NCBI RefSeq assembly: GCF_013167455.1
Contig: NZ_CP038328.1
DNA length: 64,000 nucleotides
Direction: 5' to 3' (one strand)
Origin: Escherichia coli O157:H7
Lineage (GTDB): Bacteria > Pseudomonadota > Gammaproteobacteria > Enterobacterales > Enterobacteriaceae
Shown: piece by piece, positions 27,475 through 34,770 of the stretch
Position numbering within the stretch: position 1 is the first letter of the stretch
How the letters are laid out: each line of letters starts with the position of its first letter
Made by a program: the position numbers and the translations under genes
The notes under the pieces: generated by a model
Seen by the model: the letters and a program-made list of their open reading frames with translations, nothing else
The model's database searches: none
What the model was told of the DNA's origin: nothing

Positions 27475-27968
27475 TAAGCCCCCACGTAATTCCCTGACAG
27501 ATACCACTCTTCACCCGATACAGCGCGCTTGCTGCTTTTCCGTAAGCACCGCTCACGACGCGCCAGAAAATTGTTTCGTTCTGGCTGGGAGTGGCTTTCA
27601 CGGAATGCCGCCATCCACACCGTTGCAGCACGACGGTATAAGCCCCTGGACTCCAGTTCTTCAGCCTGGCGGGTCAGGCACAAAATCACCCGGGGATCGT
27701 TAGTGCCGACATAGAAATTGCGCACAGGTCTGGTTTCACGAACTGGTTGTGGTTCCGGCTCCTGCGCTCTCTCAGTCAGGCGCGGGAAATGTCTGCGTGT
27801 ATCCCCTTCACAACGGTGAGCCACACGCCCACTCTGACGTAACTTGCTTGCAGACTGCAGAACGCGCTGCCGTGAGTAACCTGCAAAAGCATCCGCAATG
27901 TCTCCGGAAGTACAGCCCGGATGGGCTTCAATGAATTTCTGAACGTCATTCAAAAGACTCATGCTCAC
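27474..27968 (-). CDS. Hypothetical regulator, PerC/Pch-like C-terminal region (tentative)
   Basis: 164 aa; ..ELESRGLYRRAATVWMAAF.. resembles the PerC family signature; assignment from memory only. Confidence 0.4.
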   Translation of the reverse strand: MSMSLLNDVQKFIEAHPGCTSGDIADAFAGYSRQRVLQSASKLRQSGRVAHRCEGDTRRHFPRLTERAQEPEPQPVRETRPVRNFYVGTNDPRVILCLTRQAEELESRGLYRRAATVWMAAFRESHSQPERNNFLARRERCLRKSSKRAVSGEEWYLSGNYVGA

Positions 27969-28906
27969 CCCCTGAATCCTGCCGGGATCTGGCTGTAGTC
28001 CACGTTGTCGTAACTGGCTTTGAAGTACGGGTCCTCGCGTTTTTCGGTGTACGTGCTGACGGACGGCGATAAGCGCAGGGAAAGCTCATCCCATTTTTCC
28101 CGCAGCTTCGACGGGCTGAGCACGTTACGGCACCAGAACGGATCGCGACTGACGCGGCTGTACATCTCGCAGATTTGTTTATGAGTACGACCATCCTGCA
28201 CACACATCAGGCGAATTTCGTTTGCCCAGGCTGTCCAGTTCGGTTCTTTGGGACGAACCACCTCGCCGTCACATTCGGCGGCATGCTCGTACAGGGCGAT
28301 GATTTTTTTCCAGAGCCACTGTGCACAGGTCAAATCATCCTGCGTCCCCCACTGGCGCTTTTTAGGGCTGAATACAACCGCATCAGGATGGCGAGTTAAA
28401 AAATCCTGTTCATCCGTCTGCGTGTCCGGTTGCGAAGCGTCCGGACGAGAAGGTTTTTTATCTGACGGATCATGTTTTGATTTTACTGACGGATCCCCGC
28501 CAGATTCTGACGGGTGAAAACCCGCTTTTTTGCCAGATTTCGACGCATCAAATTTTGACGGGTCAGATTTTGATGCGTCAGATTTTGACGGGTCAGAATC
28601 TGACAGTTGAGAAAATGCCGCTGCCTGAAGCTTCGCAACGTTAAGCTGATAAACATTCGACGCATTGCGGTTACCCTGGCGACGCGCCTTACGCGTTAAC
28701 CAGCCTTCTGCTTCCAGCCGTGCGATAGCCGTTCTGACGGTGCTCATCCCCGCGCCAATCTGGCGGGCAATGGTTTCAATTGATGGCCAGCACACACCTT
28801 CGTCATTACTGAAATCAGCCAGGCGGGCCATAATTGCCACGCTGGATAACTTCATGCCTGACGCAGCGCAACCATCCCATACATAGCCGGTTAATTTAGT
28901 GCTCAT
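27965..28906 (-). CDS. Replication initiator (lambda O-like) with internal iterons
   Basis: 313 aa; N-terminal winged-helix region, central repetitive SDSDPSKSDASKSDPSKFDASKS linker encoded by the iteron array. Confidence 0.7.
   Translation of the reverse strand: MSTKLTGYVWDGCAASGMKLSSVAIMARLADFSNDEGVCWPSIETIARQIGAGMSTVRTAIARLEAEGWLTRKARRQGNRNASNVYQLNVAKLQAAAFSQLSDSDPSKSDASKSDPSKFDASKSGKKAGFHPSESGGDPSVKSKHDPSDKKPSRPDASQPDTQTDEQDFLTRHPDAVVFSPKKRQWGTQDDLTCAQWLWKKIIALYEHAAECDGEVVRPKEPNWTAWANEIRLMCVQDGRTHKQICEMYSRVSRDPFWCRNVLSPSKLREKWDELSLRLSPSVSTYTEKREDPYFKASYDNVDYSQIPAGFRG
28450..28610. repeat. Iteron array / phage origin of replication inside the initiator gene
   Basis: About eight imperfect direct repeats of the tttTGACGGGTCA type at roughly 18-19 bp spacing. 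Confidence 0.7.
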
Positions 28907-29254: not shown

Positions 29255-29802
29255 GCGTTAGTTTCTCCACAGTCACGACACGCCACGGCGCCCGGAGCTG
29301 CACACTCGCGGGCGTCATTACTTTCTGAAATGCAAAAAATTTTGTAGACCAGTGCTGCATGCTCCTGCAGCTTCGAAATTGAGAGGTACAGCTCGTCGTT
29401 AATTGCTGTCTTCTCATGCGGTTCCACTACACCGTCTTCAATTGCTGAACGAATCTGTTTTGAATAACTGCCGATCTGTTCAATGACCTCCAGCAGGCGT
29501 TGGTTGATATCGGCGTTGTCCACATCCTCGACATCAGGAAGAGACACAAAGACGCCATTTGCAGACTGCGCCACAGCGTCAGCAATGAAGTGAGTTCCAC
29601 CAGCACGTTGCAAAATCATTGCCCATCCCAGCGGGAAAATCTGATCGCCATCGGCACGAAGGCGGTTAAATAATGCGTTCTCTGTTACATCCAGCCAGTC
29701 AGCAGCTTCAGCGTACCCCCCCGGCAACGCTGCGATAGTTTTTCTGACAGCTTTCACGTACCACTCAGGCTGTTTTTCTACTTTCCAGTGATGCTTACCC
29801 AC
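29251..29802 (-). CDS. Phage regulatory protein, CII-like (e14 YmfL-like position)
   Basis: 183 aa, GTG start preceded by AGGAGG, immediately downstream of cro. Confidence 0.45.
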
Positions 29803-30055: not shown

Positions 30056-30152
30056 ACGCCCTCCAAATATTGCGCGTTATGCATGTTATTTCACGCAATT
30101 ATTTTGCGCAAGTTGATTTGCTTATCACGCAATAAAGAAATGTAATAAACGC
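30056..30152. promoter_or_regulatory. Right operator / divergent promoter region between cro and cI
   Basis: 97-bp intergenic region containing TTGC-N7-GCAA type sites (TTGCTTATCACGCAA at 30118-30132; TTGCGCGTTATGCAT at 30070-30084). Confidence 0.65.
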
Positions 30153-30845
30153 ATGAACATAGGAAACCGAGTCAGACAACTTCGCCAAGCGAAGAACATG
30201 AAAATCGCCGATCTCGCTGAAGCGATAGGAGTAGATGCGGCGAACATCTCGCGCTTAGAAACGGGTAAGCAAAAACAATTTACCGAACAAACACTGAGTA
30301 ATATTGCCAAGAGCTTAGGTGTTGATATTGCTGATCTCTTTACCTCTGCCCACAAAAGTAATACTGTATATAAAAACAGTAATAATGAGGATGTTGCGCA
30401 GGTGAAGGATGTGTTCCGTATTGAAATGCTGGATATCAGTGCCAGTGCGGGAAATGGCCTTATCCAGGGCGGTGATGTCATTGATGTGATTCATGCCATC
30501 GAATACAGAACTGATAATGCTGTATCAATGTTCGGCGGACGACCAGCCAATCACATCAAAGTTATCAACGTTCGTGGGGACAGTATGTGTCCAACCATTG
30601 AGCCAGGAGATCTCATCTTCGTTGATGTCAGCATCAATCAGTTTGATGGTGATGGTATATATGTCTTTGGTTTTGATGACAAAATATACGTTAAAAGACT
30701 TCAAATGATTCCTGACAAACTGCTGGTGATTTCTGATAACCAGATTTACCGTGAATGGGGAATTACTAGCGAAAACGAACACCGATTCATGGTCTTTGGA
30801 AAGGTCTTAATCAGTCAGTCGCAAACCCTTAAGAGACATAATTAA
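30153..30845 (+). CDS. cI: CI-type prophage repressor (HTH plus S24 LexA-like peptidase domain)
   Basis: 230 aa; N-terminal HTH (..IADLAEAIGVDAANISRLETGK..), C-terminal ..GDSMCPTIEPGDLIFVD...KRL.. autocleavage domain. Confidence 0.9.
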   Translation: MNIGNRVRQLRQAKNMKIADLAEAIGVDAANISRLETGKQKQFTEQTLSNIAKSLGVDIADLFTSAHKSNTVYKNSNNEDVAQVKDVFRIEMLDISASAGNGLIQGGDVIDVIHAIEYRTDNAVSMFGGRPANHIKVINVRGDSMCPTIEPGDLIFVDVSINQFDGDGIYVFGFDDKIYVKRLQMIPDKLLVISDNQIYREWGITSENEHRFMVFGKVLISQSQTLKRHN

Positions 30846-30862
30846 CCTCAATATCCCATCCA

Positions 30863-30888
30863 TCGGCCACCGAAAGGTGGCTTTTTAT
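30863..30888 (+). terminator. Rho-independent terminator after cI
   Basis: cggccacc gaaa ggtggc followed by TTTTTATT. Confidence 0.8.
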
Positions 30889-30898
30889 TACCTATAAA

Positions 30899-30949
30899 TT
30901 TGCATATCTCGCAAATACCACTTGCATATCTCGCAATTTAATTTTATCT
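30899..30949 (+). promoter_or_regulatory. Left operator / pL-like promoter: two 15-bp direct repeats TTGCATATCTCGCAA
   Basis: Repeats at 30899-30913 and 30921-30935 (22 bp centre to centre), same TTGC-N7-GCAA pattern as the right operator; TTGCAT -35 at 30921-30926, 17-bp spacer, TATCTT -10 at 30944-30949. Confidence 0.5.
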
Positions 30950-31140
30950 TTTATTCCAGACCAACTACAGGATTACAACAAAATCTGGTTGCAACACGGT
31001 GCATGTGTCGTAAGCAGTCAGTAAATGTCAAAAACGAACAGGCAGGACGCCCACGAAGTAGCCGCCTGGGGCATATGAAGTCCAGGATGATTCGTTGAGT
31101 CATGTTGTGCCACTAGGCACTCATGTTAAAGCAGGTGTAT

Positions 31141-31419
31141 GAAATGAAAGTCCAGATTTTAAACAATAACTGTGAAGTCGTTTGGTCATACGACATAGCC
31201 GCCCCTGTAGATCAGAGCGGCGATAGCTGGACCAATGGGAAACATCAGATTATGGCTGGAGTTGTGTTCTCTTTACGCCGTGCTTTAGAACAGGCTGAAG
31301 TCTTTCCATCAGACCCTGAATGGAAATGGCCTTTTTCTATTTGTCCAAATTCGGAGAGTACATTTCAGAAAATTGGTCAGAAAGTCGCACTCGAAGAGCA
31401 TCAGCCAACTGTTTCCTGA
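31141..31419 (+). CDS. Hypothetical small protein (early-left operon)
   Basis: ORF 31123..31419; ATG at 31141 with AGGTG upstream; no family recognised; 3' end overlaps a convergent ORF. Confidence 0.35.
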   Translation, partial: EMKVQILNNNCEVVWSYDIAAPVDQSGDSWTNGKHQIMAGVVFSLRRALEQAEVFPSDPEWKWPFSICPNSESTFQKIGQKVALEEHQPTVS

Positions 31420-31582
31420 TTTTTTCAGGTAACTCGTCGGCATCGCAGAAACAACAACGCTCGATCATGTTGAAAGCCGATTCGTAGAACTGTTTTTGCT
31501 GAGTGTCGCTGAGACAGGAAAAGAGCGACGTTACGATGATTTTATTAATTGCATTATCAAGTTCTTTTTCATCAAAAGTCAT
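31337..31582 (-). CDS. Hypothetical small protein, convergent to the early-left operon
   Basis: 81 aa; strong AAGGAAAA Shine-Dalgarno 7 nt before ATG at 31582; contains CCFC motif; no family recognised. Confidence 0.4.
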   Translation of the reverse strand: MTFDEKELDNAINKIIVTSLFSCLSDTQQKQFYESAFNMIERCCFCDADELPEKIRKQLADALRVRLSDQFSEMYSPNLDK

Positions 31583-31837
31583 TTGATTTTCCTTTTATGT
31601 ATACGGGCTTAAAAGGATACCACCGAGCCTGAAGTGGTGAAAAGACAGGCACATAACAGCTAAGTATTTTCAACCAGAGAGAATCCTTAGCGTTGTGGTG
31701 AATGCGGCTCAGCGCACGCGGGTTAAGGTTGAGGCTGACAGTCGACCTTCTGTGGATACCCACCCGCCTGGTGTGCAACCTTCGCCAGGCACCGGGAGGC
31801 ACCCGGCACCACAACTTTATGCTGTGTGTAGTCTTAG

Positions 31838-31882
31838 CGGTACCAGCTTGTACCCTTGCTTCCGGCTGGTACCGTCCTTTTT
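31838..31882 (+). terminator. Terminator-like hairpin (10-bp perfect GC-rich stem plus U-run)
   Basis: cggtaccagc (31838-31847), 17-nt loop, gctggtaccg (31865-31874), then TCCTTTTT. Confidence 0.5.
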
Positions 31883-31971
31883 ACAAAACAGAGAAGAGCA
31901 TCACCGGACGACGGGCTCATAACCCAATCCATCCGGGCGGCTGCCACCGCAGGTGTTCTTCTCTGTTTTGT
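31883..31971. other. Long-range 15-bp inverted repeat enclosing a GC-rich loop (structured non-coding element)
   Basis: acaaaacagagaaga at 31883-31897 pairs perfectly with tcttctctgttttgt at 31957-31971; further GC hairpin gcccc tac ggggc at about 31984-31996. Confidence 0.4.
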
Positions 31972-32095
31972 GGAGAAACTAACCGCCCCTACGGGGGCAT
32001 TTATGGAAATGTAATTGACTCAATAATCGCCGGACGGTGAGGGCTTCCTTTTACCCGAATTCAGCGCGGTGCAGCGCATATACGTGGAGAACAAA

Positions 32096-34694: not shown

Positions 34695-34770
34695 TGGTGC
34701 CGATAATAGGAGTCGAACCTACGACCTTCGCATTACGAATGCGCTGCTCTACCAACTGAGCTATATCGGC
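34695..34770 (-). tRNA. thrW: tRNA-Thr (anticodon CGU)
   Basis: Minus-strand gccgatatagctcagttggtagagcagcgcattcgtaatgcgaaggtcgtaggttcgactcctattatcggcacca; cloverleaf with GGTTCGA T-loop, anticodon loop uuCGUaa, encoded CCA. Confidence 0.95.

Follow-up and report, generated by a model that had tools for sequence, protein, structure and literature searches.

The window analysed here is a 64,000-nt stretch of the Escherichia coli O157:H7 genome (contig NZ_CP038328.1). It includes the immunity-to-integrase end of a lambdoid prophage (∼26.5–34.7 kb), and where the early-left (pL) operon of this prophage begins there are two small open reading frames (ORFs) that converge and overlap tail to tail. 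Both ORFs are genuine protein-coding genes under selection; that both of these overlapping frames are genes, one of them unannotated in RefSeq, is new, and the pair is a new occupant of the slot that holds sieB in lambda and P22. By analogy with better known loci, the pair probably represents a genuine two-gene cassette with excludon-like regulation, in which the minus-strand gene would be expressed in the lysogen and the plus-strand gene upon induction, a reading to which a probability of roughly 0.55 is given. The genes and their overlap are as follows (aa, amino acids; PGAP, Prokaryotic Genome Annotation Pipeline).

31144–31419, plus strand: the plus gene, 91 aa (phrog_3195, WP_021563905.1), first gene of the early-left operon; based on selection analysis, homologues and PGAP.
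31337–31582, minus strand: the minus gene, 81 aa (phrog_3311), antisense to pL and in the position of sieB, with a predicted three-helix bundle product; based on selection analysis, homologues and AlphaFold2 (AF2).
31337–31419, both strands: tail-to-tail coding overlap of 83 bp, with both C-terminal cores conserved (VALEE in the plus protein, ALRxRL in the minus protein).

Coding selection was assessed in nine distinct cassettes that share ∼67% nucleotide identity and show zero indels over 441 nt. Both ORFs are open in all nine, and the minus start is always located 438 nt from the plus start. Substitutions to the left of the overlap peak at the third codon position of the plus frame (1.25 per site versus 0.78 and 0.46 at the others), and those to the right of it peak at the third codon position of the minus frame (1.45–1.59 versus 0.32–0.91). 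Ratios of non-synonymous to synonymous differences (pN/pS) were obtained for the three segments.

Left of the overlap (plus gene only): pN/pS 0.32 in the plus frame and 1.75 in the minus frame.
Overlap: pN/pS 1.04 in the plus frame and 0.77 in the minus frame, with no clear codon-position peak and no clean signal.
Right of the overlap (minus gene only): pN/pS 1.33–1.43 in the plus frame and 0.25–0.32 in the minus frame.

Outside the overlap, each frame thus shows coding selection over the stretch that it alone encodes, which identifies both ORFs as genes. The unclean signal in the overlap is consistent with both frames being constrained there, each protein having a C-terminal tail that is weakly conserved except for its core. 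Existing records annotate one frame or the other, PGAP (31144–31419) and the SfV record the plus ORF only and the SKA5 record the minus ORF only, and the minus gene is systematically absent from RefSeq annotation. A first-pass annotation of the window, which had drawn attention to the pair, estimated the overlap at about 80 bp, in agreement with the 83 bp found, and named poor conservation in related prophages as grounds for doubting the two frames; both are open and under selection in the nine cassette lineages.

The plus ORF was originally delimited as 31141–31419. Its end, at a TGA stop, stands, but position 31141 is a GAA codon, and the in-frame ATGs are located at 31123 and 31144. The start is placed at 31144 because all homologues begin at the equivalent methionine of the MKVQIL sequence, behind a conserved Shine-Dalgarno (SD) sequence (AGGTG at 31133–31137; GAGG or AGGTG before the start in homologues), and because the segment containing ATG 31123 is lineage-specific, being missing from other loci and present in the E. 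coli lineage only. This segment immediately upstream of the plus gene (31100–31143), which is without counterpart in the diverged cassettes, also contains a hairpin, GTGCC-ACTA-GGCAC (31107–31120). In seven of the nine lineages (L006, L008, L009, L091, L094, L095, and L097) the plus frame has no stop at residue 91–93 and continues to 122 aa, ending at one fixed position inside the minus gene (the extension is homologous to window positions 31417–31512). With a pN/pS of 1.43 in the plus frame the extension is under no selection, which suggests tolerated read-through; it may be no more than that, or its role may be to retain ribosomes on pL transcripts.

The minus ORF was found as first described, an 81-aa frame with a strong SD, its TAG stop at 31337–31339 and the SD AAGGA at 31594–31590, 7 nt ahead of the ATG. 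An internal methionine, Met39, is kept in closer homologues and is Leu in distant relatives, with no SD upstream of it, and a CCxC motif is likewise lost in distant relatives. The ribosome-binding region of the minus gene, AAGGAAAATCAAATG (31580–31594), occurs unchanged as a 15-base stretch of the 63-bp self-immunity element aba of BTP1 bstA (PMC8585504), an identity that probably reflects just a common strong ribosome-binding site.

That neither product is recognizable, as already noted in the first pass, was confirmed by searches of Pfam, PHROGs, NCBIfam, PADLOC, and PDB sequences, which returned nothing beyond two function-less PHROGs; nor was homology of either protein to RexA, RexB, or SieB detected in Pfam, PHROGs, NCBIfam, or PADLOC. 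Both proteins are small, acidic (isoelectric points of 4.6 and 5.0) and cytoplasmic, without membrane or signal sequences. AF2 models the minus protein as a three-helix bundle with a predicted local distance difference test score (pLDDT) of 82; the model of the plus protein, a beta-hairpin followed by two helices, is poor (pLDDT 55), and fold searches for the pair gave generic helical matches only, with no specific structural neighbour of the minus protein. The plus protein (isoelectric point 4.95) is not basic and contains no arginine-rich motif, such as is found at the N-terminus of lambda N-type antiterminators; in other contigs, N-like partners that do have arginine-rich motifs occupy the position of the plus gene.

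Homologues of the plus protein diverged to 42–68% identity were recovered by protein searches, which at first yielded near-identical homologues of the minus protein only. The contigs encoding the diverged plus homologues all contain an open minus ORF of 75–81 aa, and a profile search detected distant relatives of the minus protein with 26–50% identity. In L099 and L103/L104, a distant minus relative is again accompanied by a convergent, overlapping plus homologue; the L099 pair is found in a late operon, upstream of holins, with its relative orientation unchanged, and the L103 pair beside a CI repressor in a distant pL context, the minus protein being ∼26% and the plus protein ∼42% identical. 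Two further loci (L101 and L102) encode a minus homologue alone, antisense, between Q and holin. The orientation is constant, the lytic operon having the same direction as the MKVQIL-type gene and the opposite direction to the MTFDE-type gene, and a plus gene without a minus gene was found in none of the databases searched. The cassette is present behind at least five unrelated repressor types, always first after pL; the plus homologues that invariably follow pL in this way have 42–64% identity.

The 439-bp cassette is carried by 424 of 5,426 complete E. coli genomes, O157:H7 among them, and it also occurs in the Shigella phages SfV and SfII. A tblastn search against phage records found only four near-identical records, a scan of genome contigs no relative, and viral contigs mostly near-identical E. 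coli copies; the cassette diversity described above was drawn from protein databases together with the contigs of their entries. In O157 Sakai, the thrW prophage Sp1 was considered and set aside as a different element, so that Sakai Ribo-seq data on Sp1 would not apply to the cassette. One of the diverged loci, L091, contains a further pair of convergent ORFs with a slight overlap (86 aa on the plus and 77 aa on the minus strand; 3613–4103) directly behind the cassette and its leader-like motif, so that such cassettes may be stacked in tandem.

The prophage itself is an N-less, SfV/e14-like element inserted at tRNA-Thr beside proA. Its cro and replication genes are on the minus strand and its repressor gene is on the plus strand, so that the early-left operon runs rightwards on the plus strand, towards xis and int. 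The elements that separate the repressor gene from the cassette are listed below.

30153–30845, plus strand: cI-like prophage repressor with helix-turn-helix and S24 peptidase domains (Pfam Peptidase_S24, 6e-19, and HTH_3; XRE family regulator according to PGAP).
30865–30889, plus strand: intrinsic terminator 3′ of the repressor gene, GGCCACCGAAAGGTGGCT then TTTTTATT.
30900–30914 and 30922–30936: two identical, perfect OL operators, TTGCATATCTCGCAA, found in the sequence.
30922–30950, plus strand: putative pL as read from the sequence, with −35 TTGCAT (30922–30927), a 17-nt spacer, −10 TATCTT (30945–30950) and a start at ∼30957.

Sites related to the OL operators, of the form TTGC-N7-GCAA, are found in the cro–cI intergenic region (30070–30084 and 30118–30132), and together with the two perfect operators at 30900–30936 they substantiate the earlier placement of the pair downstream of a pL-like promoter. 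The putative pL has a consensus score of 8/12, under the threshold of the promoter scan; where it sits, homologous loci have promoters of the form TTGACA-18-AATACT or TACATT.

On the other side of the cassette, the region covering the start of the minus gene contains an element related to sas, the antisense RNA of P22.

31583–31653, plus strand: sas-like antisense element, consisting of a hairpin (31590–31617) over the anti-SD and then a block (31619–31650) with interleaved stems ACCAC/GTGGT and GCCTG/CAGGC.

Compared with the 127-nt P22 sas sequence (PMC13397905), window positions 31619–31653 represent a 33/35 match to its 3′ part, where 0 matches are expected by chance; the alignment takes in the antisense start codon, and homology is confined to the 3′ domain of sas. 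In P22, the 5′ end of sas lies two bases beyond the complement of the sieB ATG; the RNA then crosses the promoter region and ends with the block. The P22 GenBank record places both the sieB promoter (29690–29720) and the RNA start (29727) between block and gene. The stem of the 31590–31617 hairpin has seven different sequences across the cassettes. For the interleaved stems, 98.5% of cells in a 14-sequence alignment are paired, three pairs show double changes, and 0 of 500 shuffles reached as high a covariation; the third loop is A-rich and 7 nt long. It is hypothesized that the interleaved stems form a pseudoknot, the compensatory changes coming from two lineages only and the structure having been derived from the same sequences. 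The possibility that the block is a terminator was rejected on both strands, there being no conserved U-run.

The flanks of the cassette are shared by many prophages that have other inserts between them. The e14 insert is ymfJ (plus) and ymfI (minus), with a 63-bp overlap; that of strain 2009C-3133 comprises a 68-aa plus ORF and an ECs1072-family minus ORF, with a 29-bp overlap; and that of IHE3034 is a single minus gene with a signal peptide. No sequence similarity to the pair studied here was found in any of these three inserts. Ahead of every antisense gene in the compared inserts, GCCTGTCTTTTcACCAC-loop-GTGGT is present on the cargo strand. When IMG/VR was scanned with a 26-base pattern of the block, at least 120 loci were obtained (L189–L308), and among the 75 of these in which a cargo could be called, the block precedes at least 25 unrelated cargo families. 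Most of the cargos are 60–150 aa long and start 35–40 nt beyond the block; they include at least three diverged SieB-family proteins (PF14163, E 5e-27 to 6e-9) and several zinc-ribbon, ymfI-like, and ECs1072-like proteins. The block is also located upstream of sieB in lambda (L309, 598–631) and P22 (L310, 1655–1686). These observations suggest that conservation of the sas 3′ domain extends far outside P22, and in lambdoid prophages at large this domain looks like the marker of a hypervariable site for cargo antisense to pL, which is a further new point.

In the window, the ATG of the minus gene follows the block at a distance of only 36 nt, too short for a P22-type promoter to fit between block and gene. 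Instead, −10 and −35 sequences predicted on the basis of the correlation with block distance would drive the minus gene from within the block.

31641–31614, minus strand: predicted promoter of the minus gene, with −35 TTCACC (31641–31636), a 16-nt spacer, −10 TATCCT (31619–31614), a start at ∼31608 and a 26-nt 5′ untranslated region (UTR).

Of 38 distinct sequences with ≤45 nt between block and ATG, 36 show TAnnnT at the block end, with TTnACC 16 nt upstream, and in the class with longer distances, which includes lambda and P22, TAnnnT is present in 0 of 13 (Fisher exact 2e-10 for the 51 distinct sequences, which are not independent). A riboswitch- or thermometer-like 5′ UTR of the minus mRNA was also considered and was dropped, since the likely start, according to the −10 correlation, is downstream of the 5′ arm of the hairpin.

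With an 83-bp coding overlap the two mRNAs must overlap if both are made, and their reciprocal expression is proposed because the repressor controls pL through the operators and the minus gene has a separate predicted promoter. In the lysogen, repressor bound to the OL operators would keep pL and the plus gene off, while the minus gene would be read from a promoter of its own that lies within the conserved block; the resulting mRNA would be antisense across the plus gene and might mop up leaky pL transcript. Upon induction or infection pL would fire, the plus protein would be made, and transcription would proceed head-on through the minus gene and its promoter. The pL-strand RNA, with its sas-like element, would in addition pair with the SD and start codon of the minus mRNA and switch the minus gene off. 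The net outcome would be mutually exclusive expression, as in a convergent excludon. Transcriptional interference between convergent promoters is generally known and lends support to such a mechanism. The action of sas on SieB and Esc in P22 was reportedly described by Ranade and Poteete in 1993. As summarized more recently, P22 sas blocks the translation of SieB while that of Esc continues (PMC12197685). Among K-12 loci, ymfI-ymfJ and sieB-ydaF are listed as convergent excludons defined by RNA sequencing (RNA-seq; PMC12288877), and e14 ymfJ is strongly induced late in the SOS response (PMC11002266). Antisense regulation, which the first-pass annotation had raised for the overlap, is thus a sound idea, since a homologue of the P22 sas 3′ part spans the start region of the minus gene and analogues in K-12 are listed as excludons.

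The regulatory logic of the pair belongs to a known kind. As with sieB of P22 and lambda, the antisense gene comes right after the first pL gene, towards which it is transcribed (Rac sieB has the same position and orientation), and the same conserved block is found upstream of the start, which in P22 is the 3′ part of sas and lies over the SieB translation start. The minus protein differs from SieB in having no PF14163 match, no membrane segments and no evident nested Esc start. Its convergent partner is a 91-aa protein rather than N (gene 24 in P22), and the two coding regions share 83 bp; in lambda, by contrast, sieB and N are directly adjacent, and in P22 a gap of 20 nt remains between the end of sieB and gene 24. 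Here the block, with 36 nt between it and the ATG, seems also to serve as the promoter, whereas P22 has a separate mapped promoter between block and gene. The e14 ymfJ/ymfI locus occupies the same site, with the pL leader motif described below on one flank and the block and an STnc100-like element on the other, and it likewise consists of a small pL-directed ORF convergent with an antisense ORF. The K-12 excludon pairs (e14 ymfJ/ymfI and Rac ydaF/sieB) nevertheless encode proteins without sequence similarity to those of the cassette, and they are documented by RNA-seq, whereas the expression of the cassette is predicted from sequence.

More distant parallels are provided by two systems outside the sieB slot. 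BstA of phage BTP1 is a 307-aa protein. Its gene too is an accessory gene beside the repressor locus, and BstA, being expressed in the lysogen, needs a way to spare the lytic growth of its own phage (PMC8585504), a logic that may also apply to the cassette; bstA, however, is described as situated 3′ of the cI repressor locus, self-immunity there resides in a DNA element rather than in RNA or protein, and there is no homology. In the Pseudomonas phage Fc02, a small lysogen-expressed gene overlaps an early lytic-operon gene on the opposite strand in the lysis-lysogeny region (olg1 and gene 10; PMC9936078), the arrangement of expression that is proposed here, although Fc02 is an unrelated Mu-like phage with unrelated proteins, and both Fc02 products exclude phages.

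As regards function, exclusion is a reasonable guess. Since the slot also holds SieB, the minus protein is tentatively viewed as a lysogen-expressed accessory or exclusion factor, a suggestion whose chances are judged to be somewhat short of even. It is doubtful, by the same analogy, whether the plus protein is its cognate early-expressed antagonist, that is, an Esc-like self-immunity factor. The most ambitious version would have the sas block as the fixed ‘handle’ of a slot whose lysogen-expressed cargos are silenced by one antisense scaffold, and the pair as a new two-protein exclusion system of an 81-aa three-helix protein that blocks or aborts infection by other phages and a 91-aa early protein that is its cognate self-immunity factor, the protein equivalent of Esc or aba; this is thought improbable, with perhaps one chance in five. 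The slot and the asymmetry in distribution, the plus gene never occurring alone and the minus gene sometimes, fit exclusion with self-immunity and a toxin-antitoxin (TA)-like arrangement, and fit mere physical linkage equally well.

Several observations weigh against a coupled, excludon-like cassette. The 83-bp physical overlap could by itself explain the constant co-occurrence of the two genes; the minus protein lacks homology to SieB, and no internal start of the Esc type is evident in it; and the model of the plus protein is poor, at a pLDDT of 55, while fold searches gave generic helical matches only. The excludon-like expression is deduced from sequence and from analogues. The predicted minus promoter is only an 8/12 match and was missed by a simple promoter scan, the minus gene has no evident terminator until a weak hairpin at 31054–31038, and no start for a dedicated sas-like RNA was found; no −10 is shared inside the N-terminal codons of unrelated cargos, and no positional signal of a sas promoter is apparent there. 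Among the block loci, moreover, four different cargos are found with a single partner family, whose proteins start MEFKDLP, and such reassortment means that protein-level coupling is no general rule of the slot.

The reassortment of partner and cargo families in other cassettes also argues for the alternative that survives most strongly, although it is still considered unlikely, namely that the two genes are unrelated neighbours. The plus gene would then be simply the first early-left gene, with for instance a host-takeover or anti-defence role, and the minus gene an independent moron, their overlap being due to compaction and their regulation generic. In accordance with this, minus homologues exist alone, and the gene convergent with sieB in lambda and P22 is N, which has no functional relation to sieB. 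Three observations run counter to such independence: no plus gene without a minus gene was met in any database searched, the pair has moved as a unit into a late operon, and its geometry is fixed, with no indels at 67% identity.

Rather poorer prospects are assigned to a TA-like safety catch, in which the plus gene would encode a toxic early protein whose leakage is neutralized by lysogen-made minus protein until induction removes the latter by transcriptional interference. A plus gene that is never alone and a minus gene that sometimes is would correspond to the pattern of a toxin and an orphan antitoxin, both proteins are small and cytoplasmic, and the poor stand-alone model of the plus protein is compatible with folding on a partner. 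Against this, Pfam, NCBIfam, and PADLOC gave no TA family match, the genes are convergent and not co-transcribed as in type II systems, and the toxicity of the plus protein is purely hypothetical.

Very improbable is a two-component exclusion system of the rexAB type, with both proteins acting together in the lysogen. RexA and RexB of lambda are made together in the lysogen and provide an accessory exclusion function of the immunity region, which the pair adjoins, and both genes of the pair are real. The position had indeed been likened to that of rexAB in the first-pass annotation, a comparison that does not hold, since rexAB lies between cI and OL/pL, co-oriented with cI, whereas the pair is found beyond pL, in the slot of sieB, on opposite strands and with no homology to RexA or RexB; the plus gene, being behind the OL operators and pL, is furthermore expected to be repressed in the lysogen. 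Scarcely credible is the view implied by current annotations, that one ORF only is a gene and the other an open antisense frame, for although PGAP and SfV call one frame and SKA5 the other, antisense frames of coding DNA are often open, and the plus frame runs unselected to 122 aa in seven of nine lineages, it is refuted by pN/pS, with purifying selection on each frame confined to its own non-overlapping part, as well as by the conserved SDs and start codons of both ORFs and by independent relatives of the minus family where no plus gene exists.

The cassette has some wider implications. It occurs, as noted, in 424 of 5,426 complete E. coli genomes, and one of its genes is missing from RefSeq annotation; it also provides a putative link between an anonymous ORF pair and the classical but little-studied sieB/esc/sas control circuit. 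The 26-base block pattern offers a search handle for candidate lysogen-expressed genes, possibly with roles in exclusion or defence, in lambdoid prophages. If the coupling is true, the pair would constitute a compact defence with self-immunity built in at three levels, by promoter collision, antisense RNA, and protein antagonism.

Two further RNA elements are located on either side of the cassette.

31034–31095, plus strand: structured RNA motif in the pL leader, ∼62 nt, with the core ACAGGCAGGACGCCCACG at 31038–31055; based on conservation and RNAalifold.
31662–31884, plus strand: STnc100/PasD-like small RNA element, given as context only (Rfam RF02076, 43 bits, below the gathering score of 47, E 7e-7).

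Of the 310 loci fetched, 182 contain the pL leader motif. Each has a single copy, which in every locus checked is on the lytic strand; as a rule this copy follows pL and precedes the first gene, but in L091–L094 it is found on the right-hand side of the cassette. RNAalifold predicts 15 pairs for the motif, five of them with compensatory changes. The lambda and P22 loci, where N and nutL are present, lack the motif, which may be an N-independent (put-like) antitermination element or a processing element. The STnc100/PasD-like element is absent from the cassette loci L004–L010. It is spanned in the window by a PGAP pseudogene, a ‘frameshifted hypothetical protein’ (31695–32014), and K-12 ymfH overlaps its e14 homologue; these coding-sequence calls are probably the result of an RNA element having been misread as protein.

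Two other weak Rfam matches in the window were taken to be due to chance. The match to Plastid-ycf2 (34697–34770) corresponds to the antisense of tRNA-Thr. A weak match to mir-5880 (28531–28605) falls on a repeat-rich stretch of the O-like replication gene (27965–28906), the protein of which contains repeated DPSKSDASKS units, and this stretch is read as probable origin iterons and not as a microRNA.

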